The notes beneath the pieces were generated by a model. It saw only the letters and a program-made list of their open reading frames with translations. It was not told where the DNA came from and did no database searches. Source: a virus (taxonomy: Duplodnaviria; Caudoviricetes). Taken from it: a stretch of 39,345 bases of DNA. This document shows positions 10,612-39,339 of the stretch, piece by piece. Positions within the stretch are counted from its first letter, which is position 1. Each line of letters opens with the position of its first letter. The DNA lies in the IMG/VR virus record IMGVR_UViG_3300027732_001882, positions 1-39,345 of that record. One strand, 5' to 3'. Both the position numbers and the translations under genes were made by a program.

Positions 10612-11490
10612 TTATGGCCAATTAAATCCACTGGCTTCGTCAATATCTTCAATTTTAATCACAACAGATCGAGTTGTGATGGTATTCATATAATTTTTTA
10701 ATCGTTCGCTGACCAAATCATTTCGAACCTTCTTACTTGGACTGCCAAGTACTATGATATCAAAGTCTTGATTTTTATAACTTACCAACATGTCAATGCA
10801 CCATCCAGCAGGATTGGTAAATCCTGTTTTACCAATTTTGATATCGTATTGACCGGCAAATGCATTGGTGTTATTGACCACTAACTTTTGCCACATGCCT
10901 CGCTTGTTTTGTGCGTTCGAGCTTGATGTCTTGCTCATTGCAGTTTCTTTAAAAATTGCGTATTTGATCAGCGAACGATTTAACAAATGTAAATCCCATG
11001 CAGTACTTGTGTTTAACATGAGGCCGGTTGGTTCAATGAAAGATGTGTTCTTCATTTCCAGGCGTTGCGCCGTGGCATTCATTTCTGCGATGAATAGGTC
11101 ATAACCCATTGGGTGATGCACAGCCAGTAGTTTTGCCGCAAGATTATCACTAGAGACCAGTGCAAGGTGTAATAGTTCTCTACGGGTAATTATCATACCA
11201 AGTTTAAGAACTCTGCTACCTTCTATTCGCTGAGGTATAACTGGTAATCTTTCGTCAAGGTCTACTCGGCTTTCCAGCACAACAAACGCAGTCATTAATT
11301 TTGTTACACTGGCAATTGGCATCACCCGGTGGATGTTTAATTCATCAGCAATTGTGTTGGTTGTTTTATTGAAAACTAATATTGCTTGAGCGGGTTCAGC
11401 AGGTGGTTTATTTGTTTTCTTTTTTGCCTGGGCAGGCATTGAACACATTACAACAATAAGTGGCCCGGCCAGCAGGAATCGAACCCACAT
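10612..11490 (-). CDS. peptidase S11 (D-alanyl-D-alanine endo/carboxypeptidase, PBP7/PbpG-like)
   Basis: ASVTKLMT (SxxK), SDN and KTGFT motifs; signal-like N-terminus from ATG 11490. Confidence 0.88.
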   Translation of the reverse strand: MWVRFLLAGPLIVVMCSMPAQAKKKTNKPPAEPAQAILVFNKTTNTIADELNIHRVMPIASVTKLMTAFVVLESRVDLDERLPVIPQRIEGSRVLKLGMIITRRELLHLALVSSDNLAAKLLAVHHPMGYDLFIAEMNATAQRLEMKNTSFIEPTGLMLNTSTAWDLHLLNRSLIKYAIFKETAMSKTSSSNAQNKRGMWQKLVVNNTNAFAGQYDIKIGKTGFTNPAGWCIDMLVSYKNQDFDIIVLGSPSKKVRNDLVSERLKNYMNTITTRSVVIKIEDIDEASGFNWP

Positions 11491-11535
11491 TCTAGAGGTA
11501 GAAGCTCTATGTACTATCCATTGTACTATGGCCAG
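11461..11535 (-). tRNA. tRNA-Arg(TCT)
   Basis: Cloverleaf, anticodon arm TAGAG-CTTCTAC-CTCTA, GTTCGA T-loop, CCA. Confidence 0.85.
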
Positions 11536-11545
11536 ATGAATCAAT

Positions 11546-11761
11546 TTAAACGATCTTACCAAGGACTTGATAGATAAGTTGGTCCAACTCTTGCTGATAG
11601 TCTTTGCCGAATCTACGCTTTAAATAAATTGACTCAAGTATTTCTTTAGAATCGAGATCGCATTCGGGAGGCAAGTTACCTCTAGACTCCAATTCTTCAA
11701 TCAGGTCTTCAGTATCAAAATCACTTAGACTTACTTCAACTTCTGTATAGACTGTTGGCAT
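11546..11761 (-). CDS. hypothetical acidic protein
   Basis: 71-aa ORF with an AAGG RBS. Confidence 0.7.
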   Translation of the reverse strand: MPTVYTEVEVSLSDFDTEDLIEELESRGNLPPECDLDSKEILESIYLKRRFGKDYQQELDQLIYQVLGKIV

Positions 11762-11778
11762 GTTTGACCTTTAAATTG

Positions 11779-11862
11779 TGGTGCCCCAGGTCGGACTCGA
11801 ACCGACACGCCTTTCGGCACTGGCTTCTAAGACCAGCGTGGCTACCATTACACCACCGGGGC
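11779..11862 (-). tRNA. tRNA-Leu(TAG)
   Basis: Cloverleaf with long V-arm, loop CTTAGAA, CCA. Confidence 0.93.
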
Positions 11863-11872
11863 AAAAAAAACT

Positions 11873-12037
11873 TTACTTACGCTGTCCTTCTTTTGGCTCT
11901 CTCTTGACAACTACACCAGCGGCCAACTCTGCTTGAATCATTGCGGCCTTCCAAGCATTGCGCTTGGTTGTATCAACAATGCTACACAGCATACGCTTGG
12001 TTGTTTTACTTAATCGAAATGTTTTACCTGGCTTCAT
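11873..12037 (-). CDS. 54-aa basic protein
   Basis: MKPGKTFRLSKTTKRMLCSIVDTTKRNAWKAAMIQAELAAGVVVKREPKEGQRK*. Confidence 0.6.
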   Translation of the reverse strand: MKPGKTFRLSKTTKRMLCSIVDTTKRNAWKAAMIQAELAAGVVVKREPKEGQRK

Positions 12038-12059
12038 ACTATACTTTCGTTGTTGTGTT

Positions 12060-12149
12060 TGGCGGAACGACTCGGACTCGAACCGAGAACCCGGATTACG
12101 CCGAGCGACAGATTAGCAATCTGCTCTAATACCATTATAGGACCGTTCC
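12060..12149 (-). tRNA. tRNA-Ser(GCT)
   Basis: Long V-arm, loop TTGCTAA, G73, CCA. Confidence 0.93.
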
Positions 12150-12222
12150 AAATTTTTACTTTGTAAAATTTATTATAAGCTATTTAAGCCGCTGTTGTCA
12201 ATGATTTGTTGATAAATATTCC

Positions 12223-12780
12223 ATGGAATTGTATAAAAACTTTGACCTATCATATGGACCATTGTCTTCAACTGGGTTGCGATTATTAAAAAAAATTAGG
12301 TCCAGGAATGTATACAGTAGATATACCATTGACAGTGCCAGGCATGTTGATCACAATGTGATCGGTTTCTTTGCAGAAAGAGGTTTGCGGATTCGGGGTT
12401 GCGAACTTTTTTACTACCCAACCAATTTTACTTCGATGATTCATACTGACGGTGCTGATGTAGATTACATGATGCCAGGAAATATGGCCAAGATTAATTA
12501 TATTTCCAACTCCAGTAGCGGTGTTCTAAACTGGTACACTCCAAAAGTAACAAAAGTGTCGCGTAAAAATACCAACTCAAACAATTATGCTAGCTTTACA
12601 GCAGATCAGGTAAATTTGCTGTACAGCAAACATCTTGGTGGATACAACATTGTACAAACTGGAATCCCACACAATGTAACAACCACAGAAGAAACTCGAT
12701 ACACAGTCTCTTTTACAGTGACTGACGCAACAAACAAGTTGCTACCTTATGAATTACTAGCATCTAAGATTTTTAAATAA
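12223..12780 (+). CDS. HxD...H cupin/Fe(II) oxygenase-like protein, antisense within tRNA cluster 1
   Basis: IHTD...KINY...PHNV...RYTVS. Confidence 0.65.
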   Translation: MELYKNFDLSYGPLSSTGLRLLKKIRSRNVYSRYTIDSARHVDHNVIGFFAERGLRIRGCELFYYPTNFTSMIHTDGADVDYMMPGNMAKINYISNSSSGVLNWYTPKVTKVSRKNTNSNNYASFTADQVNLLYSKHLGGYNIVQTGIPHNVTTTEETRYTVSFTVTDATNKLLPYELLASKIFK

Positions 12781-12790
12781 CAAACTACAA

Positions 12791-12867
12791 TGGTACCCCG
12801 GGAGAGATTCGAACTCTCAACACCCTCCTTTTGAGAGAGGTGCGTCTACCAATTGCGCCACCGGGGT
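12791..12867 (-). tRNA. tRNA-Leu(CAA), short variable loop
   Basis: CCTCT-CTCAAAA-GGAGG arm, A73, CCA, 77 nt. Confidence 0.88.
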
Positions 12868-12875
12868 ATTGACTT

Positions 12876-12950
12876 TGGTCTCACCAACAGGAATCGAACC
12901 TGTATCCGAGTCTTAGGAGGACCCTATTCTATCCATTGAACTACAGTGAG
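12876..12950 (-). tRNA. tRNA-Arg(CCT)
   Basis: Loop CTCCTAA, CCA. Confidence 0.9.
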
Positions 12951-12953
12951 CAT

Positions 12954-13045
12954 TGGCGGAAACGGTGAGATTCGAACTCACGGGAGGTTTAACCCTCCGC
13001 TAGTTTTCAAGACTAGTGCCATAAACCGGACTCGGCCACATTTCC
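12954..13045 (-). tRNA. tRNA-Ser(TGA)
   Basis: Loop CTTGAAA, long V-arm, CCA. Confidence 0.93.
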
Positions 13046-13053
13046 TTTACACT

Positions 13054-13127
13054 TGGCGGGCTCTGAGAGACTCGAACTCCCACTAACGGTTTTGGAGACC
13101 GCAGTACTGCCATTATACTAAGAACCC
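13054..13127 (-). tRNA. tRNA-Trp(CCA)
   Basis: Loop CTCCAAA, G73, CCA. Confidence 0.92.
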
Positions 13128-13268
13128 TTAAAACTCTTTCTTAAAAATTGGAATCATTATTGCCGGTATTGTTGTGCAACCTTGTTCGTTGGGCACAGAG
13201 CAAGTTTTTGGTATTGCACCACATGCACCAACTGATACAAGTACACACATTGACAATAATTTTTTCAT
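13128..13268 (-). CDS. 46-aa putative lipoprotein
   Basis: MKKLLSMCVLVSVGA-C lipobox-like signal, with two further Cys. Confidence 0.65.
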   Translation of the reverse strand: MKKLLSMCVLVSVGACGAIPKTCSVPNEQGCTTIPAIMIPIFKKEF

Positions 13269-13275
13269 GATATCC

Positions 13276-13352
13276 TGGTAGCCTCACTCTGACTCGAACA
13301 GAGGACCTATGCGTTATCAACACATTGCTCTAACCAACTGAGCTATGAGGCT
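13276..13352 (-). tRNA. tRNA-Ile(GAT)
   Basis: Loop TTGATAA, CCA. Confidence 0.92.
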
Positions 13353-13372
13353 ATAAACTTACTTATAAATTT

Positions 13373-13446
13373 TGGCACGGGAACTAGGACTCGAACCTAG
13401 AACGACACAGTCAAAGTGTGTTGTGTTACCATTACACCATTCCCGA
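13373..13446 (-). tRNA. tRNA-Gln(TTG)
   Basis: Loop CTTTGAC, G73, CCA. Confidence 0.92.
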
Positions 13447-13454
13447 ACAGAAAC

Positions 13455-13530
13455 TGGTACCAAGAGTTGGACTCGAACCAACCACACCCTGTGCTTCAAA
13501 CAGGTGCTCTACCAGATGAGCTATCTTGGC
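13455..13530 (-). tRNA. tRNA-Phe(GAA)
   Basis: Loop TTGAAGC, CCA. Confidence 0.9.
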
Positions 13531-13544
13531 ATAAACTTATTAGG

Positions 13545-13615
13545 GGTGACCTACGGGGGTTGAACCCGTACTAACAGAATCACAATCTGTGGTGCTACCG
13601 CTACACTAAGGTCAC
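13545..13615 (-). tRNA. tRNA-His(GTG), no encoded G-1 or CCA
   Basis: Loop TTGTGAT, C73 followed by CCT. Confidence 0.88.
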
Positions 13616-13629
13616 ACCTAATAAGTCTT

Positions 13630-13703
13630 TGGTAGGGGTGCTCGGGAACGATCCGAGTTTTACTGGTTAAAAGCCAGTTACTTCACCTTAAAGTTTCACC
13701 CCC
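13630..13703 (-). tRNA. tRNA-Lys(TTT), atypical T-loop
   Basis: ACTGG-CTTTTAA-CCAGT arm, T-loop ATCGTTC, CCA. Confidence 0.85.
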
Positions 13704-13820
13704 ATTAATTTCTCTCTTTTGCGCTTGTCGTTCTGATTTCCAGAACACACGCTTCCATTCCTTAAGGTGTTTCCACCATTGTGGTGAACGAGTTAACGTC
13801 CCTTTCTTGACACTGGCCAT
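13683..13820 (-). CDS. 45-aa basic Trp-rich protein; 3' end overlaps tRNA-Lys
   Basis: AAGGAG RBS. MASVKKGTLTRSPQWWKHLKEWKRVFWKSERQAQKREINGGETLR*. Confidence 0.65.
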   Translation of the reverse strand: MASVKKGTLTRSPQWWKHLKEWKRVFWKSERQAQKREINGGETLR

Positions 13821-13840
13821 AACAGGCTCTCCTTTAAAAT

Positions 13841-13915
13841 TGGTGGTAATGGTAAGAATCGAACTTACACTGGACTGCGTATGAAGCAGGCGCACTACCG
13901 TTATGCTACATTACC
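13841..13915 (-). tRNA. tRNA-Met(CAT), elongator-like
   Basis: Loop TTCATAC, paired G1-C72, CCA. Confidence 0.82.
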
Positions 13916-13916
13916 T

Positions 13917-13994
13917 TGGAGTACGGAGTGAGATTTGAACTCACGACTTTACTGGTTTGCAATCAGTTCCCTTGGACCTCTCGGGCATCCGTAC
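13917..13994 (-). tRNA. tRNA-Cys(GCA)
   Basis: Loop TTGCAAA, U73, CCA. Confidence 0.92.
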
Positions 13995-14000
13995 ACAAAT

Positions 14001-14075
14001 TGGCGCCCTGTGATGGAATCGAACCACCATCCTGAGTTTCGAAGACTCTAATTCTATCCATTGAACTAACAGGGC
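14001..14075 (-). tRNA. tRNA-Arg(TCG)
   Basis: Loop CTTCGAA, CCA. Confidence 0.9.
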
Positions 14076-14080
14076 ATGAT

Positions 14081-14155
14081 TGGTGGGCCAGTCTGGAATT
14101 GAACCAGAACTCAACCGATTATGAGTCGGACGCTTTACCATTAAGCTACTGGCCC
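14081..14155 (-). tRNA. tRNA(CAT), probable Ile2 (lysidine-type)
   Basis: CCGA-CTCATAA-TCGG arm and GGGCC acceptor resemble bacterial ileX. Confidence 0.8.
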
Positions 14156-14163
14156 ATTGAAAT

Positions 14164-14248
14164 TGGTGGAGTATCCTGGGATCGAACCAGGCGTGCCCGA
14201 AGGCGGCGGATTTACAGTCCACTGCATCACCATTGATGCTTCTACTCC
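14164..14248 (-). tRNA. tRNA-Tyr(GTA)
   Basis: Loop CTGTAAA, long V-arm, CCA. Confidence 0.92.
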
Positions 14249-14256
14249 ATGTAGAA

Positions 14257-14285
14257 ATTATAACACACTGACACGCAAATGTCAA
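14257..14285 (-). promoter_or_regulatory. consensus sigma70 promoter directly upstream of tRNA-Tyr
   Basis: TTGACA-N17-TATAAT. Confidence 0.85.
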
Positions 14286-14450: not shown

Positions 14451-14455
14451 ACACT

Positions 14456-14493
14456 AAAAGAAAAACCCCTGGAGCCTTTCGAGTCCAGGGGTT
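14456..14493 (-). terminator. intrinsic terminator of attenuator 1
   Basis: AACCCCTGGA/TCCAGGGGTT stem followed by TTTCTTTT. Confidence 0.85.
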
Positions 14494-14513
14494 AAGTAAA
14501 CGGTCTGATTACT

Positions 14514-14633
14514 TTATCCTGGACATGCTCCTAGAATATGGCGAACACGATAGCTCATACTAAAGGAGTCACAGAATGACATGCTCTGTTTTGAGCACCA
14601 CTGCGATAGTCTTGATATGAATGTGTTCGTCAT
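14514..14633 (-). CDS. 39-aa leader peptide of tRNA cluster 1
   Basis: MTNTFISRLSQWCSKQSMSFCDSFSMSYRVRHILGACPG*; ATG 7 nt after the -10 box; 3' end overlaps the antiterminator. Confidence 0.75.
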   Translation of the reverse strand: MTNTFISRLSQWCSKQSMSFCDSFSMSYRVRHILGACPG

Positions 14634-23878: not shown

Positions 23879-23952
23879 TGGAGCGGAATGTCAGAATCGA
23901 ACTGACGACAACAGATTGGAAATCTGTAGTTTTACCATTAAACTAATCCCGC
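23879..23952 (-). tRNA. tRNA-Gly(TCC)
   Basis: Loop TTTCCAA, U73, CCA. Confidence 0.93.
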
Positions 23953-24287
23953 ACTTTATAGAGGCCGTCTGTGACGCTTGAATTCGCGGTAGCCCTGCTC
24001 TTCATGGCCGGTCCTTCTATTGACTAGTATTGAGAAGTTTTTCGGTGTTCCACTGTAGCTACTCAAACGGCTTTTATAAAGTGTCCGGCTACTCACACCA
24101 CATGAGCCCCGGACTGAGCGGTTACTCTGTCCGTAACATTTATTCTTATGGGAAGGTGTTAAACCTCACCTAATGCGTCTCCGCCACTCCTCTACGGATG
24201 ACGGATGGCCAATGCACTACACGCCAAGCACTCTTTATGGTGACTGCCCCACCCCCTTTGTATAACGGGCAAGGGCGCCCGGGGTAC
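23952..24287 (-). ncRNA. candidate large structured RNA between tRNA-Pro and tRNA-Gly
   Basis: About 335 nt, non-coding and GC-rich; long stem closing 23952-24083; CCCCGG/CCGGGG long-range pair. Confidence 0.55.
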
Positions 24288-24288
24288 T

Positions 24289-24366
24289 TGGTCGGAGTAC
24301 TAGGATTCGAACCTAGGACCCCCGCGTCCCAAACGCGGTGCGCTAACCAGACTGCGCTACACTCCG
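24289..24366 (-). tRNA. tRNA-Pro(TGG)
   Basis: Loop TTTGGGA, CCA. Confidence 0.94.
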
Positions 24367-24371
24367 ATAAC

Positions 24372-24446
24372 TGGTTGCAGGGGATGGATTCGAACCACCG
24401 ATCTTCAGCTTATGAGACTGACGAGTTGCCACTTCTCTACCCCGCG
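24372..24446 (-). tRNA. tRNA-fMet-like (CAT)
   Basis: CGCGGGG start, C1:A72 mismatch, loop CTCATAA. Confidence 0.88.
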
Positions 24447-24465
24447 ATAACTTACTAACTTAAAT

Positions 24466-24541
24466 TGGTGCCCCCACCATGAATCGAACACGGGACAACC
24501 GCATTACAAGTGCGGTGCTCTACCAGCTGAGCTATAAGGGC
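24466..24541 (-). tRNA. tRNA-Thr(TGT)
   Basis: Loop CTTGTAA, CCA. Confidence 0.93.
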
Positions 24542-24562
24542 GTTGATCTTACTTACATTATT

Positions 24563-24638
24563 TGGTACATCGTGACGGGCTCGAACCGCCGACAGCCTGC
24601 GTGTAAAGCAGGAACTCTACCAACTGAGTTAACGATGC
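24563..24638 (-). tRNA. tRNA-Val(TAC)
   Basis: Loop TTTACAC, CCA. Confidence 0.93.
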
Positions 24639-25069
24639 AAATATTCGTAGTTTGTTGTTTCTTCATTCTCTCTAAAAATAATAGCACCGTTCTTGGTATG
24701 GAACCGCTTGGCCATTTCTGTTTTAGGACTCAGTGTAACAAACTTTGTTATACTTGGTTTATTCTCCTTGATGTAGTCAACTGCATCAAAGATTAACTGA
24801 CGGCCTGCGCCAGGTTTATAACTCCAAATTGTATAAAAAACTGCTGTGTCTGGTTCTTCACTTGAAGTAAACAAATCAGATTCTGATTCAGGAATACTGT
24901 TTTGATAACTTACACATGTGATTGCACGGACTGAGTCGTCATCATTTTTTAGTACAAAAATTTCTCTGTTGTCACCCACGCGGTCATTTGCAGGGATGTG
25001 TGGGCGTACTGGGTCTTGACTGATCAAGTCCAGTATATTTTCTCCAAGTGTTTGAATCAAGTGCAACAT
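24629..25069 (-). CDS. GNAT-fold-like conserved phage protein
   Basis: AVFYTIWSY..GAGR..FVTLSP..RFH..NGA. Confidence 0.7.
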   Translation of the reverse strand: MLHLIQTLGENILDLISQDPVRPHIPANDRVGDNREIFVLKNDDDSVRAITCVSYQNSIPESESDLFTSSEEPDTAVFYTIWSYKPGAGRQLIFDAVDYIKENKPSITKFVTLSPKTEMAKRFHTKNGAIIFRENEETTNYEYLHR

Positions 25070-25077
25070 AATCTTAC

Positions 25078-25248
25078 TTAGCCGCCTTGGTCACTGTCGG
25101 CAGGCAAATTGCCTGGAGGCTTGTCAATTTCTTTTTGGTCTTCGGCGTTGTTTGATTTTTTATCAAAAATTTTATCCCAATTGTCTGAGTAAGTTTTTGA
25201 ATCAACGCTGTAAGGCCTTGGGTTATCGCCCTTACCAGCTTCGTGCAT
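25078..25248 (-). CDS. 56-aa small protein (GKGxxPRP...NWDxIF type)
   Basis: AGGA RBS. MHEAGKGDNPRPYSVDSKTYSDNWDKIFDKK... Confidence 0.65.
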   Translation of the reverse strand: MHEAGKGDNPRPYSVDSKTYSDNWDKIFDKKSNNAEDQKEIDKPPGNLPADSDQGG

Positions 25249-25269
25249 ACTAACTTTCCTTTATAATAA

Positions 25270-25345
25270 TGGTGGAGGTGACAAGGATCGAACTTGCGAC
25301 ATCCAGCTTGCAAAGCTGGCGCTCTCCCAACTGAGCTACACCCCC
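25270..25345 (-). tRNA. tRNA-Ala(TGC)
   Basis: G3-U70, loop TTTGCAA, CCA. Confidence 0.95.
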
Positions 25346-25363
25346 AAAAATTTTATGATTTGC

Positions 25364-25451
25364 ACCATAGAAAAACACACTCAAGTCCGCGGCACGGAAG
25401 GCACTATACCCGCGATGGTCTATGACCAGGCCTAGTGTGTTTATCTATGGT
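25364..25451 (-). ncRNA. candidate stem-closed small RNA B
   Basis: 18-bp terminal stem (1 mismatch) enclosing two hairpins. Confidence 0.55.
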
Positions 25452-25452
25452 T

Positions 25453-25560
25453 AGCATATTGAAACACACTATACAACAGGTTTAGGTCTGCTTCTGTATC
25501 CTGTTACGGCCGAGTATGAAGTTATCTCTGGACCTATGCCGTAATGTGTTTTAATATGCT
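25453..25560 (-). ncRNA. candidate stem-closed small RNA C
   Basis: 18-bp terminal stem enclosing two hairpins with complementary loops. Confidence 0.55.
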
Positions 25561-25561
25561 C

Positions 25562-25755
25562 TGCGAACCTCGGTGGTAATTGTACCGTATCAAGCGCCAG
25601 GAACCCCCAACACCATCACACACGGCTTCCACCCACTTCCCGACAGGTTCCGTTAACGCATTGCCAGCGGCCTTTTGGTTCGAAGACTACCACCCGTACT
25701 TGTCACAGTACTTCTCATCGTGTGGGTCACACTATCCGACGACACTCGGAACGTC
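25562..25755 (-). ncRNA. candidate structured RNA E
   Basis: GC-rich and non-coding; CACACG/CGTGTG, GGTGGTAGT/ATTACCACC and GAACC/GGTTC pairings. Confidence 0.5.
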
Positions 25756-25831
25756 TGGTTGCGGGGGAAGGATTCGAACCTCCGTCTCCTAGGTTATGAG
25801 CCTAGTAGTCTGGCCACTGACGTACCCCGCG
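25756..25831 (-). tRNA. tRNA-fMet-like (CAT), second copy
   Basis: CGCGGGG start, C1:A72, loop CTCATAA. Confidence 0.88.
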
Positions 25832-25836
25832 ATATA

Positions 25837-26061
25837 CTATCGAACTTTTCGTATTCCTTCGTAACCTAACTTGCCATTTTGTACTTCAAGCAATGCAGTT
25901 ACTGGTGTATGAAGATGTTCTGTGCGAACACTTTCTCTATTGTTTTGACTAATTTCTCTTGCTCTGGCCGCGGCAATTAAAACCAAGTCAAATCGATTGC
26001 CTCCAACATTTTGTACACATTGATCTGTATCAATGTCAACTCCTCGACTGATGTATGTCAT
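25837..26061 (-). CDS. rpoZ: RNA polymerase omega subunit-like protein
   Basis: NRFDLVLIAAARAREI...PVTALLEV..G; start at ATG 26061. Confidence 0.85.
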   Translation of the reverse strand: MTYISRGVDIDTDQCVQNVGGNRFDLVLIAAARAREISQNNRESVRTEHLHTPVTALLEVQNGKLGYEGIRKVR

Positions 26062-26099
26062 AATTGCCTTTGTAAAAGTGAAAGAAACTAGCGTTTTCT

Positions 26100-26175
26100 T
26101 GGCTCCACCTCCTGGGCTCGAACCAGGGACCAAATGATTAACAGTCATCTACTCTACCAACTGAGCTAAGGCGGA
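26100..26175 (-). tRNA. tRNA-Asn(GTT)
   Basis: Loop CTGTTAA, G73, CCA. Confidence 0.95.
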
Positions 26176-26188
26176 AAATAATTGAATC

Positions 26189-26384
26189 TGTAAGTAGTTG
26201 CCCCATCATTATAGCAACCATTCACCCGTGTAATAAATCCGGACGGGATTCGGTAAGTTACTTGGGATACCGGTCCAGTTTAGTCGCCTCAATGGACCTA
26301 GTGGGTGTCGAACCCATGACCTTCTACTGTTTCGGTCCTTCGAAGAAACCTAGACAGCGTGACTTTCTCTTGCTAACACTTACA
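26189..26384 (-). ncRNA. candidate structured RNA F
   Basis: TGTAAGT/ACTTACA closing stem; internal T-arm-like TGGGTTCGACACCCA. Confidence 0.45.
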
Positions 26385-26389
26385 AAACT

Positions 26390-26464
26390 TGGCGGTCTGT
26401 GGGGGAATCGAACCCCCGTAAGTGGATAGACAATCCACAGTAATAACCTCTATACGAACAGACC
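26390..26464 (-). tRNA. tRNA-Asp(GTC)
   Basis: GTGGA-TTGTCTA-TCCAC, G73, CCA. Confidence 0.9.
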
Positions 26465-26471
26465 TAATTTC

Positions 26472-26556
26472 TGGTGCGACTGGCCGGAATCGAACCGGCA
26501 TGCTGTTAAGCGAGAGATTTTAAGTCTCTTGTGTCTACCGATTTCACCACAGTCGC
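26472..26556 (-). tRNA. tRNA-Leu(TAA)
   Basis: Loop CTTAAAA, long V-arm, CCA. Confidence 0.94.
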
Positions 26557-26559
26557 AAT

Positions 26560-26776
26560 ACCATATGTAAAATTACAAAGGAACTCCACTTACCTTGCAG
26601 GACCGTCTCCTGCTACTTCTGCTTCGTCATTACGCTCTAGTAAATCCTACCGTGCCATTTGGTGATGTTGCCATCCCTCAGCTTTCATGTACACTACATT
26701 GAGCCAGCCCGTCAGCTGGATATACTCAATACAGGTACCTAGCAGTACTAGTAACCTTTATAACTTTACATATGGT
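26560..26776 (-). ncRNA. candidate stem-closed RNA D
   Basis: 22-bp terminal stem ACCATATGTAAAGTTATAAAGG/CCTTTGTAATTTTACATATGGT, starting in the ACCA of tRNA-Glu. Confidence 0.55.
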
Positions 26777-26847
26777 ACTCGATAGCGGAGTCGAACCGCT
26801 CTTGCCTGGATGAAAACCAGATGTCCTAACCGATAGACGAATCGAGC
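26773..26847 (-). tRNA. tRNA-Glu(TTC)
   Basis: Loop TTTTCAT, CCA. Confidence 0.92.
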
Positions 26848-26863
26848 ACAAATGCCACCAAAT

Positions 26864-26894
26864 TTTTAAAGAACAATCACTTCAACTTTCGCTG
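26864..26894 (-). promoter_or_regulatory. rrn-like boxB-boxA antitermination signal
   Basis: CAGC-GAAA-GTTG hairpin, then TGTTCTTTAAAA (E. coli rrn boxA is TGCTCTTTAACA). Confidence 0.6.
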
Positions 26895-26906
26895 TAGTGT
26901 TTGGTT

Positions 26907-26972
26907 ATTATATACGGACAATGCCGTAATGTCAACCGTTTTCTAACTTTCTTTTGTTGTATTTCTACAACA
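26907..26972 (-). promoter_or_regulatory. consensus sigma70 promoter with palindromic operator
   Basis: TTGACA-N17-TATAAT (26907-26935); palindrome at 26955-26972. Confidence 0.8.
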
Positions 26973-27013
26973 ACTTTCAAACTGTTTCTACTGCATTGCT
27001 ACAGCATGCCACT

Positions 27014-27079
27014 AGTATATGCTATCTACTGATTCCTGTCAACAACTATCTGTCTTTATCTTGTTGTATTTCTACAACA
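27014..27079 (-). promoter_or_regulatory. sigma70 promoter with palindromic operator
   Basis: TTGACA-N17-TATACT (27014-27042); palindrome at 27062-27079. Confidence 0.8.
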
Positions 27080-27083
27080 AGCC

Positions 27084-27159
27084 TGGAGCGGGTGATCAGG
27101 TTCGAACTGACGACATCTTGCTTGGCAAGCAAGTGCTCTACCAACTGAGCTACACCCGC
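27084..27159 (-). tRNA. tRNA-Gly(GCC)
   Basis: Loop TTGCCAA, U73, CCA. Confidence 0.95.
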
Positions 27160-27161
27160 AC

Positions 27162-27195
27162 AATAAAAAAGCCCCGGAGTTTTTATTTCCAGGGC
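27162..27195 (-). terminator. intrinsic terminator of attenuator 2
   Basis: GCCCTGGA/TCCGGGGC stem plus TTTTTTATT, immediately 5' of tRNA-Gly(GCC). Confidence 0.8.
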
Positions 27196-27218
27196 CTGTA
27201 ATCTCACTATGCGTAGAG

Positions 27219-27284
27219 TTACGGCCTCGGAGTATCCTCTGTGGCTGGTCCTGTATTACCTGGTAACAATTTTGCGTTTAACAT
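27219..27284 (-). CDS. 21-aa leader peptide of tRNA cluster 2
   Basis: MLNAKLLPGNTGPATEDTPRP*; ATG 6 nt after TATAAT; stop lies inside the antiterminator. Confidence 0.75.
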   Translation of the reverse strand: MLNAKLLPGNTGPATEDTPRP

Positions 27285-27290
27285 AGTATT

Positions 27291-27319
27291 ATTATATATC
27301 CTTTTAACTTAGAAGTCTA
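27291..27319 (-). promoter_or_regulatory. sigma70 promoter for leader 2
   Basis: TAGACT-N17-TATAAT. Confidence 0.7.
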
Positions 27320-38407: not shown

Positions 38408-38466
38408 AGGTTCCTCTTTGATAAGTTAGGCTAATACTTATAGTATTTGACTATTCGCAATTTTCC

Positions 38467-38494
38467 AAAAAGAAAGCACCCGAAGGTGCTTTCT
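38467..38494 (-). terminator. tmRNA terminator
   Basis: AGAAAGCACC-TTCG-GGTGCTTTCT plus T-run. Confidence 0.85.
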
Positions 38495-38775
38495 GGTATT
38501 TTCTGTTACGAGGTATTTCCTACCCTAAGTGGCTGTTAGGCCGCTAATGCGAACTGTGAGTCGTTTGCGGTTACTTTTGTTTAGTTTTTACGACTATCGC
38601 TGTCGTGCTGTCCACTCTGTTACTTGTTGCCCTGTCGAATCTAGGTCAGGCCCATCAAAAACATACTCTGTTAAATTTCACCTCTCCGCGTGTGAGGTCG
38701 AATATGTTTGTGGTGGACCTGGGGGGATTCGCACCCCCGTCCAGAACACTTTTCTCTTTGCTTCATACAGCAATA
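38495..38775 (-). ncRNA. ssrA: circularly permuted (two-piece) tmRNA, tag ANDSQFALAA
   Basis: The piece ending in T-arm and CCA (about 38775-38711) precedes the piece starting GGGCCTGA...ATTCGAC (from 38653); G3-U70; tag ORF at 38536-38568. Confidence 0.92.
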
Positions 38776-38781
38776 ACTTGT

Positions 38782-38810
38782 ATTATAGCACTAGTCTATA
38801 ATTTTGTCAA
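38782..38810 (-). promoter_or_regulatory. consensus sigma70 promoter of tmRNA
   Basis: TTGACA-N17-TATAAT. Confidence 0.85.
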
Positions 38811-38811
38811 A

Positions 38812-39339
38812 TCAATTTGAACCTGTGTCGGTTCCTTTACGGCCATCGCGGCCCATGGCACCTACCATACCTTTGTCAGTACTAAAGAAGGTATCAGCAA
38901 ATATCAATAGAAACATGCCAACTGAACCTAGCCACCAACCAAGAATACCGCCGGGGCCGGCCCCTGCCATTGTGGCAATCCCAGCAGCTGGAATTACTGA
39001 ATATAACAGTTGAATCAGTTTGCCTTGCCAGTTACCTGCAAGTCCCCAGGCCTCTGCTAGTTGTCCTTGTGGTTCTTGTCCAACTTTGTTTTTTAGTATT
39101 TCTTCAAATCCCAATGCTTTAGCAACTTTGATTGCATTTTCTCTGCTGGGTGTAAAATCTCCACCAGTTGCTTGTTTAACTTGTTGTGCAATTTGAGCGA
39201 CAGTATCACCACCAAACAGCTTCATTGCTTTTGGTACCATGGACTTCAATGAGTCCATAATGCCCTCGTCGAGTTGGGTGTTTGCCTGACTATTTTCATT
39301 GATTATATCAATGTATTTGCGAAAATGTTGTGTGCTCAT
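38812..39339 (-). CDS. hypothetical protein with C-terminal hydrophobic segments
   Basis: 175-aa ORF. Confidence 0.7.
   Translation of the reverse strand: MSTQHFRKYIDIINENSQANTQLDEGIMDSLKSMVPKAMKLFGGDTVAQIAQQVKQATGGDFTPSRENAIKVAKALGFEEILKNKVGQEPQGQLAEAWGLAGNWQGKLIQLLYSVIPAAGIATMAGAGPGGILGWWLGSVGMFLLIFADTFFSTDKGMVGAMGRDGRKGTDTGSN

Follow-up and report, generated by a model that had tools for sequence, protein, structure and literature searches.

Two tRNA clusters, each behind a short leader

The window analysed here is a whole virus record of 39,345 bases and carries 29 tRNA genes in two clusters on the minus strand. ARAGORN called 28 of them; the remaining one, a Tyr gene, was found with Rfam and also at relaxed score. 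Cluster 1 (11461..14248) contains 17 genes, for Tyr, Met, Arg, Cys, Met, Lys, His, Phe, Gln, Ile, Trp, Ser, Arg, Leu(CAA), Ser, Leu(UAG) and Arg. Cluster 2 (23879..27159) contains Gly(GCC), Glu, Leu(UAA), Asp, Asn, Met, Ala, Val, Thr, Met, Pro and Gly(UCC). Its first gene, tRNA-Gly(GCC) at 27084..27159, is the only member without another promoter ahead of it. Cluster 1 is headed by a short ORF with a terminator (leader 1, 14455..14633, minus strand), which served as the comparison partner for the element in front of cluster 2, called leader 2 here. Of the marks of an initiator tRNA (unpaired first base, three G-C anticodon pairs), both Met tRNAs of cluster 2 have the unpaired first base but lack the three pairs. 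Their initiator-like character is consistent with leader 2 having no internal Met.

Cluster 2 also encloses the gene for the RNA polymerase omega subunit (25837-26061, minus strand), and many relatives carry omega amid their tRNA arrays. Between tRNA-Glu and tRNA-Leu(UAA) lies a structured RNA of 213 nt (26560-26772, minus strand) with an 18-bp closing helix (z -4.4, 0/200 shuffles). It has no Rfam match and appears as a separate contig in two RNA runs. A tmRNA at 38445-38824 (minus strand) matches the betaproteobacterial and the permuted two-piece Rfam models. The record is of a lake phage; the sequencing runs containing it are labelled freshwater, and from these labels and the tmRNA family match we infer a large freshwater phage of a betaproteobacterium. 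A search for cultured relatives found no leader 1, leader 2 or close omega gene in cultured phages.

Structure of leader 2

Leader 2 starts with a sigma-70-type promoter (27291..27319, minus strand) composed of TAGACT (27319-27314), a 17-nt spacer and TATAAT (27296-27291). The ORF that follows (P0001; 27219..27284, minus strand) has 21 codons, with the ATG at 27284 and the stop at 27221-27219. The ATG comes 6 nt after the -10 box, beginning at the seventh base. This is too close for a ribosome-binding site to fit in between, and a leaderless mRNA is therefore predicted. Downstream is an intrinsic terminator with its U tract (27165..27195, minus strand), recognised from sequence and covariation, with an 8-bp hairpin and 9-nt loop (27195-27171) and six T (27170-27165). 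The standard terminator scan did not call this hairpin with its 9-nt loop. tRNA-Gly(GCC), starting at 27159, directly adjoins the terminator. An earlier note on this DNA had placed the promoter, ATG, ORF, terminator and tRNA-Gly(GCC), and all of its coordinates check.

No Rfam model, described riboswitches and T-box included, matched at gathering score over 27162-27319. Pfam gave no match for leader 1 or leader 2, and no leader family appeared at an E value of 5. Residues 1-8 of leader 2 (27284-27261) are the same as residues 5-12 of IvbL, the E. coli ilvBN leader peptide, with 19 of 24 nt alike. Common descent with IvbL was considered and rejected because the orthologues of leader 2 vary there, and the likeness is probably a coincidence. 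A degenerate scan with the same residues recovered 76 loci, only three of which, near-identical copies, had a tRNA cluster.

Codon content of leader 2

The earlier note counted 17 cluster-2 matches among codons 2-19. The count is right, but it omits Arg20, a cluster-1 codon; for the whole ORF after Met the match is 18/20, with Lys5 and Arg20 as mismatches. Val is indeed the one cluster-2 amino acid that leader 2 of the window does not sample, and the codons form no run longer than two. Against a background of 7991 codons from 32 window genes, 58 % of which stand for cluster-2 amino acids, the binomial p is 0.002 for 18/20 and 0.0007 for 17/18. Real protein windows reach 18/20 in 17 of 7383 cases, and random sets of nine out of 19 amino acids cover leader 2 equally well in 61 of 92378. 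In the two alternative frames 7 and 8 codons match, and when the bases of the leader are shuffled, 18/20 is reached in 0.05 % of trials. As a single ORF at p of about 0.002 is suggestive at most, the case rests on comparison among phages.

The two leaders had also been described as sequence-unrelated, with complementary codon sets. The first holds for the ORFs but not for the terminators, which have a common CCCTGGA...CTCCRGGG core. Regarding the second, the bias is strong, but the sets are not a partition, since leader 1 uses 19 of the 20 amino acids and lacks only Glu. Nine residues within leader 1 are of the cluster-2 type.

Conservation of leader 2 among phages

Orthologues were searched for with the omega protein, a terminator-plus-tRNA pattern and a core pattern. 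At least 12 loci were recovered, and the 12 examined in detail comprise 10 distinct leader sequences with 76 % mean column identity. In every orthologue tRNA-Gly(GCC) is the first tRNA behind the leader. The promoter layout, with its 17-nt spacer and 6 nt to the ATG, recurs in 10 of the 11 loci with upstream sequence; the eleventh has 18 and 5 nt. The ATG, the frame and the stop position are kept in all 10 distinct leaders, which are 20-22 codons long, with the stop placed 23-26 nt ahead of the hairpin.

When codons are counted back from the stop, the stretch from -16 to -5 has five variable positions, and all residues seen there in the 10 leaders belong to the cluster-2 set. Residues outside the set are confined to the ends: those in the first five codons are Lys, Arg, Ile and His, those in the last four are Arg and Ser. 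For Ile, found in three orthologues, the known or likely tRNA belongs to cluster 1. Glycine is sampled as GGY and then GGA in 9/10 leaders, and two Gly codons are invariant. A core of Gly-x-Thr-Gly-x-Ala-x-Glu-Asp is conserved, and synonymous changes in it are few. The nearest variant (L004, L536) has Val (GTA) in place of Ala4, and two orthologues (L540, L546) have CTA codons together with Leu(UAG) in cluster 2. About 8-9 kb upstream of three orthologues, ARAGORN called a tRNA with a CUA anticodon, labelled Pyl (L545:1975, L546:1183 and L551:1183), a possible amber suppressor.

Sorting of codons in phages with two or three leaders

Seven phage records have two leaders and one has three. In all seven two-leader genomes, codons exclusive to one cluster sort with that cluster's own leader (whole ORFs, Fisher p 2e-7 to 0.015). 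The individual values are 3e-5 (G000), 2e-7 (G003), 2e-5 (G006), 4e-5 (G008), 0.009 (G011), 0.005 (G014, with the third Met taken as start and an unclear ARAGORN call counted as Trp) and 0.015 (G009, whose clusters are cut by the contig end). For the window the two-by-two table reads 15 to 2 against 9 to 25 (p 3e-5). G000, G003 and G006 are akin, as are G008, G011 and G014, so the genomes represent about five independent lineages. The second of these groups is partitioned differently, with Phe, Tyr, Ser, Trp, Cys and Leu apart from the rest.

The genome with three matched leaders (G012, 455 kb) has a leader rich in His, Tyr and Glu before His, Tyr and Glu tRNAs, and another rich in Leu, Asn and Pro before Leu, Pro and Asn tRNAs. 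In its third leader the first 27 codons after Met all match the own cluster. This comparison concerns the tRNAs behind the three leaders; the genome has further, scattered ones. A permutation test of leader codons against clusters, as proposed in the earlier note, was run on 10 leaders and ten clusters from one genome per lineage in five lineages, and 0/200000 permutations reached the observed sum. The own cluster ranks first for 8/10 leaders; it ranks third for the first leader of G009, and four Leu codons in leader B of G014 are a mismatch.

The leucine codons follow the position of one tRNA gene. Where Leu(UAG) lies in cluster 1 (G000, G006), it is leader 1 that carries CTN codons, and leader 2 uses only TTR within its sensing zone. 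Where it lies in cluster 2 (G003), CTA occurs twice in leader 2 and Leu is absent from leader 1. The relocation is a natural counterpart of the leader swap proposed in the earlier note, seen as one evolutionary event.

Antiterminator and terminator

The 5′ arm of the antiterminator consists of the final codons and the stop (27216..27231, minus strand), and its 3′ arm (27188..27205, minus strand) overlaps the 5′ arm of the terminator. This pairing, claimed in the earlier note, forms in folding and duplex calculations at -18.4 kcal/mol and includes the terminator arm; 0/300 shuffled left arms equalled it, and the next-best 18-mer of the leader reached -9.6. The duplex is found in 12/12 loci at -18.4 to -22.6 kcal/mol, with at most 2/300 shuffles equal. 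One base of the terminator arm covaries in both helices, as G-U/A-U/G-C in the antiterminator and U-G/U-A/C-G in the terminator, and the 7-bp terminator core is paired in 10/10 aligned leaders. Pairs were counted sequence by sequence because MAFFT alignments misplace the antiterminator 3′ arm. In all 12 loci, then, the antiterminator excludes the terminator, overlaps the ORF end and has compensatory changes.

We modelled a ribosome on the leader by masking the A-site codon and 10 nt, which is an approximation. At equilibrium, 6/10 leaders flip: with the passage of the ribosome over the Glu-Asp codons, the terminator probability rises from about 0 to 1.0. For the leader of the window, L536 and L531 the terminator is favoured (0.6-0.9) for every ribosome position, and L521 is intermediate. 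A switch in the window would therefore need kinetic capture, that is, a particular folding order. For the short nascent transcript of the window, the antiterminator has a probability of 0.8-0.9 up to codon 14 and of 0-0.5 from codon 16. The predicted sensing zone thus comprises codons 2-15 (27240..27281, minus strand), of which 13/14 encode cluster-2 amino acids.

Asp17 and Thr18 fall outside this zone. A ribosome stalled at Asp17 would block the antiterminator, which takes Asp off the list of sensed tRNAs, and by the folding model Asp probably cannot be sensed by leader 2. As the codons from Asp17 on lie beyond the zone, the omission of Arg20 from the earlier count was justified. In several orthologues folding gives a small hairpin over the Glu-Asp-Thr codons, a candidate 1:2 pause or protector hairpin, and a terminator fold of the ribosome-free RNA. 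These near-invariant codons may be held by the hairpin rather than by sensing, and in the model the last five or six codons appear structural.

The claim that leader 2 is a second leader-peptide attenuator mirroring its own cluster is thus supported by 10 distinct orthologous leaders, by covarying helices and by matches in phages partitioned otherwise.

Leader 1 and a wider family of leaders

A conserved motif 3′ of the leader-1 terminator (about 14440-14330, minus strand) recurs in about 340 stored viral stretches; it has no Rfam match and is probably a structured RNA. A family set anchored on this motif, drawn from 121 of the roughly 340 stretches, gave 81 distinct leaders from 139 sites. 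Leader 1 belongs to this family of leaders with all 20 amino acids and keeps 19 of them. After grouping at 70 % likeness, all 20 amino acids occur in 36/55 leaders against 2.6 expected from protein windows of equal length, the 55 being relatives and not independent trials. Unsplit tRNA arrays are headed by a single leader of this all-20 kind. A consensus promoter at 14285 precedes the first tRNA of cluster 1, and such a promoter stands before the first tRNA behind 20/59 family leaders.

We also surveyed 112 distinct hairpins of the leader terminator pattern, from 120 loci. An ORF with an antiterminator was present at 12/15 hairpins with a tRNA within 600 nt, at 5/54 without a tRNA and at 7/43 with too little 3′ sequence. 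Leaders of 27-34 codons with the common terminator and an antiterminator occur in L174, L121, L151, L172, L201, L216 and L228, most of them with no tRNA seen within 600 nt. Another type of short ORF, with 31-35 codons and a terminator just before tRNA-Gln, is found inside arrays (L120 at about 16082, minus strand; L291 at about 6143, plus strand) and by eye is not codon-matched.

Proposed mechanism and alternative readings

From sequence comparison and folding models, we think it probable that leader 2 is a leaderless, ribosome-coupled transcription attenuator that senses the supply of the cluster's own tRNAs and works by negative feedback. The transcript would start at the ATG and be translated leaderless by host ribosomes. 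A ribosome at codon 17 or beyond is predicted to cover the antiterminator arm, so that the terminator forms. A ribosome held at about codons 2-15 would leave the arm free to capture the terminator 5′ arm. Slowing would follow from shortage of charged Gly, Leu(UUR), Asn, Ala, Pro, Thr or perhaps Glu tRNA. Host RNA polymerase would then continue through tRNA-Gly(GCC) to the end of the cluster, adding to the basal output of the internal promoters, and the new tRNAs would speed decoding and shut the switch. Starvation for an amino acid would not be relieved by extra tRNA, so that loss or overload of tRNA would be the likelier trigger in nature. The pair of specialised leaders may have arisen from an ancestral leader with all 20 amino acids over one array, when that array was split.

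Among the alternatives, the one that survives best, though we hold it to be unlikely, is that the attenuator in practice controls only tRNA-Gly(GCC), with internal promoters serving the rest and the mixed codon set as a relic. The two further promoters that the earlier note reported 3′ of tRNA-Gly(GCC) are real. They lie at 27014..27042 (TTGACA-17-TATACT) and 26907..26935 (consensus), both on the minus strand and each with a GTTGTA-N4-TACAAC palindrome ahead; the second is followed by a boxA-like motif at about 26880-26865. At least one consensus promoter stands between tRNA-Gly and the next tRNA in 12/12 loci and two in 9/12, usually with the palindrome ahead and often with the boxA-like motif after it. 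The motif near 26875 is a candidate boxA, and tandem promoters followed by such a motif resemble the layout of an rRNA operon leader. The palindrome occurs at 27078, 26971, 14769 and 37944 (minus strand), upstream of four promoters, is kept in most leader-2 orthologues and looks like an operator. As internal promoters are present in all 12 loci, in our main reading too the switch likely supplements basal transcription and does not gate it, and most of cluster 2 is independent of it. The constant first place of tRNA-Gly(GCC) and the two invariant Gly codons also fit control of this gene alone.

Several observations speak against so narrow a role. No second terminator was found inside cluster 2 of the window, from Gly(GCC) to Gly(UCC), and the Leu codon type tracks a tRNA that lies 3′ of the internal promoters. 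Classical leaders for a single amino acid have runs of one codon, and leader 2 has none. Moreover, RNA contigs cover the stretch between the 3′ end of tRNA-Gly and the first internal start. The expression data are contigs from six RNA-library runs and two DNA runs, and contigs cannot show RNA ends. In three RNA runs, from three studies, contigs start inside the leader (27275, 27253 and 27237) and cross the terminator, two of them continuing past tRNA-Glu. In two other RNA runs a contig starts at the 5′ end of tRNA-Gly (27158). Across the six RNA runs, a contig spans the promoter in one, the leader is covered little or not at all in two, and next to nothing covers the locus in one; the DNA contigs run on upstream through the locus. 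Where RNA contigs leave the sequence upstream of the leader uncovered, we did not count this by itself as evidence. Taken together, the RNA contigs hint weakly at a start near the ATG and at readthrough, and no termination or regulation is seen in them. From the layout of promoters, our main reading is that tRNA-Gly(GCC) is likely reached through the attenuator alone, which boosts the other genes of cluster 2.

Slightly less credible is a general sensor of translation speed or ribosome availability, with a codon match that is incidental, a by-product of base composition and RNA structure. The switch would open at any stall in the sensing zone, whatever its cause; the first codons, rich in A, depart from the cluster set, and the helices fix the codons at the 3′ end. 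However, the leader's own bases, when shuffled, seldom reproduce the match, and different partitions (FYSWCL, HYE, LNP) are each mirrored.

It is improbable that the product itself matters, either the peptide, for example as an arrest peptide, or the terminated 120-nt RNA, for example as a small RNA. The conserved core with its few synonymous changes and the IvbL-like first eight residues would suit a functional product, but chemically unlike residues replace each other within the cluster set (Pro/Leu, Pro/Asn/Thr, Thr/Ala/Leu), Pfam and Rfam give no match, and the IvbL-like start varies among orthologues.

A chance ORF before an ordinary terminator, which would shield the cluster from the gene upstream, is scarcely tenable, for although short ORFs end 18-36 nt before such hairpins in 10/54 cases without tRNAs, the composition statistics (18/20, p 0.002; permutations) oppose it and it is largely refuted by an own promoter, frame, stop position and antiterminator kept at 76 % mean column identity.

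Comparison with known systems and significance

Amino-acid operons have attenuators of the trpL and hisL kind besides pheL, as well as the multivalent thrL, ilvL and ivbL. In E. coli the pheM-pheST attenuator senses charged tRNA through its leader peptide and controls phenylalanyl-tRNA synthetase by feedback. Leader 2 would resemble it in the feedback on translation machinery, whereas pheM is cellular, serves one amino acid and targets a synthetase. In attenuators of the pheL type, a short ORF is translated, a 2:3 antiterminator competes with a 3:4 terminator, and a ribosome pause at low aminoacyl-tRNA leads to readthrough (PMC3082878). Leader 2 has the short ORF and the alternative antiterminator and terminator helices in common with the leaders of pheL, trpL and hisL. 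Leaders of the pheL and ivbL type are cellular, control biosynthetic enzymes and contain runs of one to three amino acids, whereas leader 2 is viral, has tRNA genes as targets and samples eight or nine tRNAs with about one or two codons apiece. The tRNA-gene targets and the lack of a codon run set it apart from biosynthetic leaders, from which it also differs in its predicted leaderless start and the conserved downstream promoters.

In Anabaena, the trn operon, an L-array of 26 tRNA genes, is induced 100-1000-fold when translation is impaired (PMC8421152) and is controlled by the repressor TrcR (PMC10272220). Like the leader-2 clusters it is a tRNA array, and its response to translational stress parallels the one proposed for them, but its control is by a repressor and not codon-specific; neither 'attenuat' nor 'leader' occurs in PMC8421152. 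Also close are the leaders with all 20 amino acids of unsplit phage arrays, which have the same terminator family, a stop 20-33 nt before the hairpin and the same place ahead of tRNA genes. Leader 2 has half their length, samples only the amino acids of its own sub-cluster and adjoins the first tRNA without an intervening structured RNA. In the literature on phage tRNA control and tRNA arrays, as covered by openly available main texts, we found no account of attenuation over phage tRNA genes, and PMC10264068 and PMC12482277 have no mention of attenuation or leader. Leader 2 would be a variant of a known attenuation mechanism with phage tRNA genes as its target, and that it is real and conserved is well supported by comparison.

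It has long been asked why phages carry tRNA genes, and the main proposals are codon compensation and the replacement of host tRNAs lost to defence nucleases (PMC10264068). If our reading is true, a feedback sensor that lists its own tRNAs would mean that the phage itself monitors decoding supply, and the question would become one that a reporter can assay. Split arrays supply paired leaders that differ in codon set, together with a natural swap; a leader with all 20 amino acids can offer neither. The 125-nt element with its sigma-70 promoter could also become a compact in vivo reporter of tRNA loss. On a broader view, towards which we lean neither for nor against, phages may possess modular, programmable sensors of tRNA supply, with one checklist ORF per sub-cluster that is edited down to the isoacceptor as tRNA genes move. 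A phage so equipped would detect destroyed or exhausted host tRNAs and make the matching replacements, an inducible counter to tRNA-cleaving defence.
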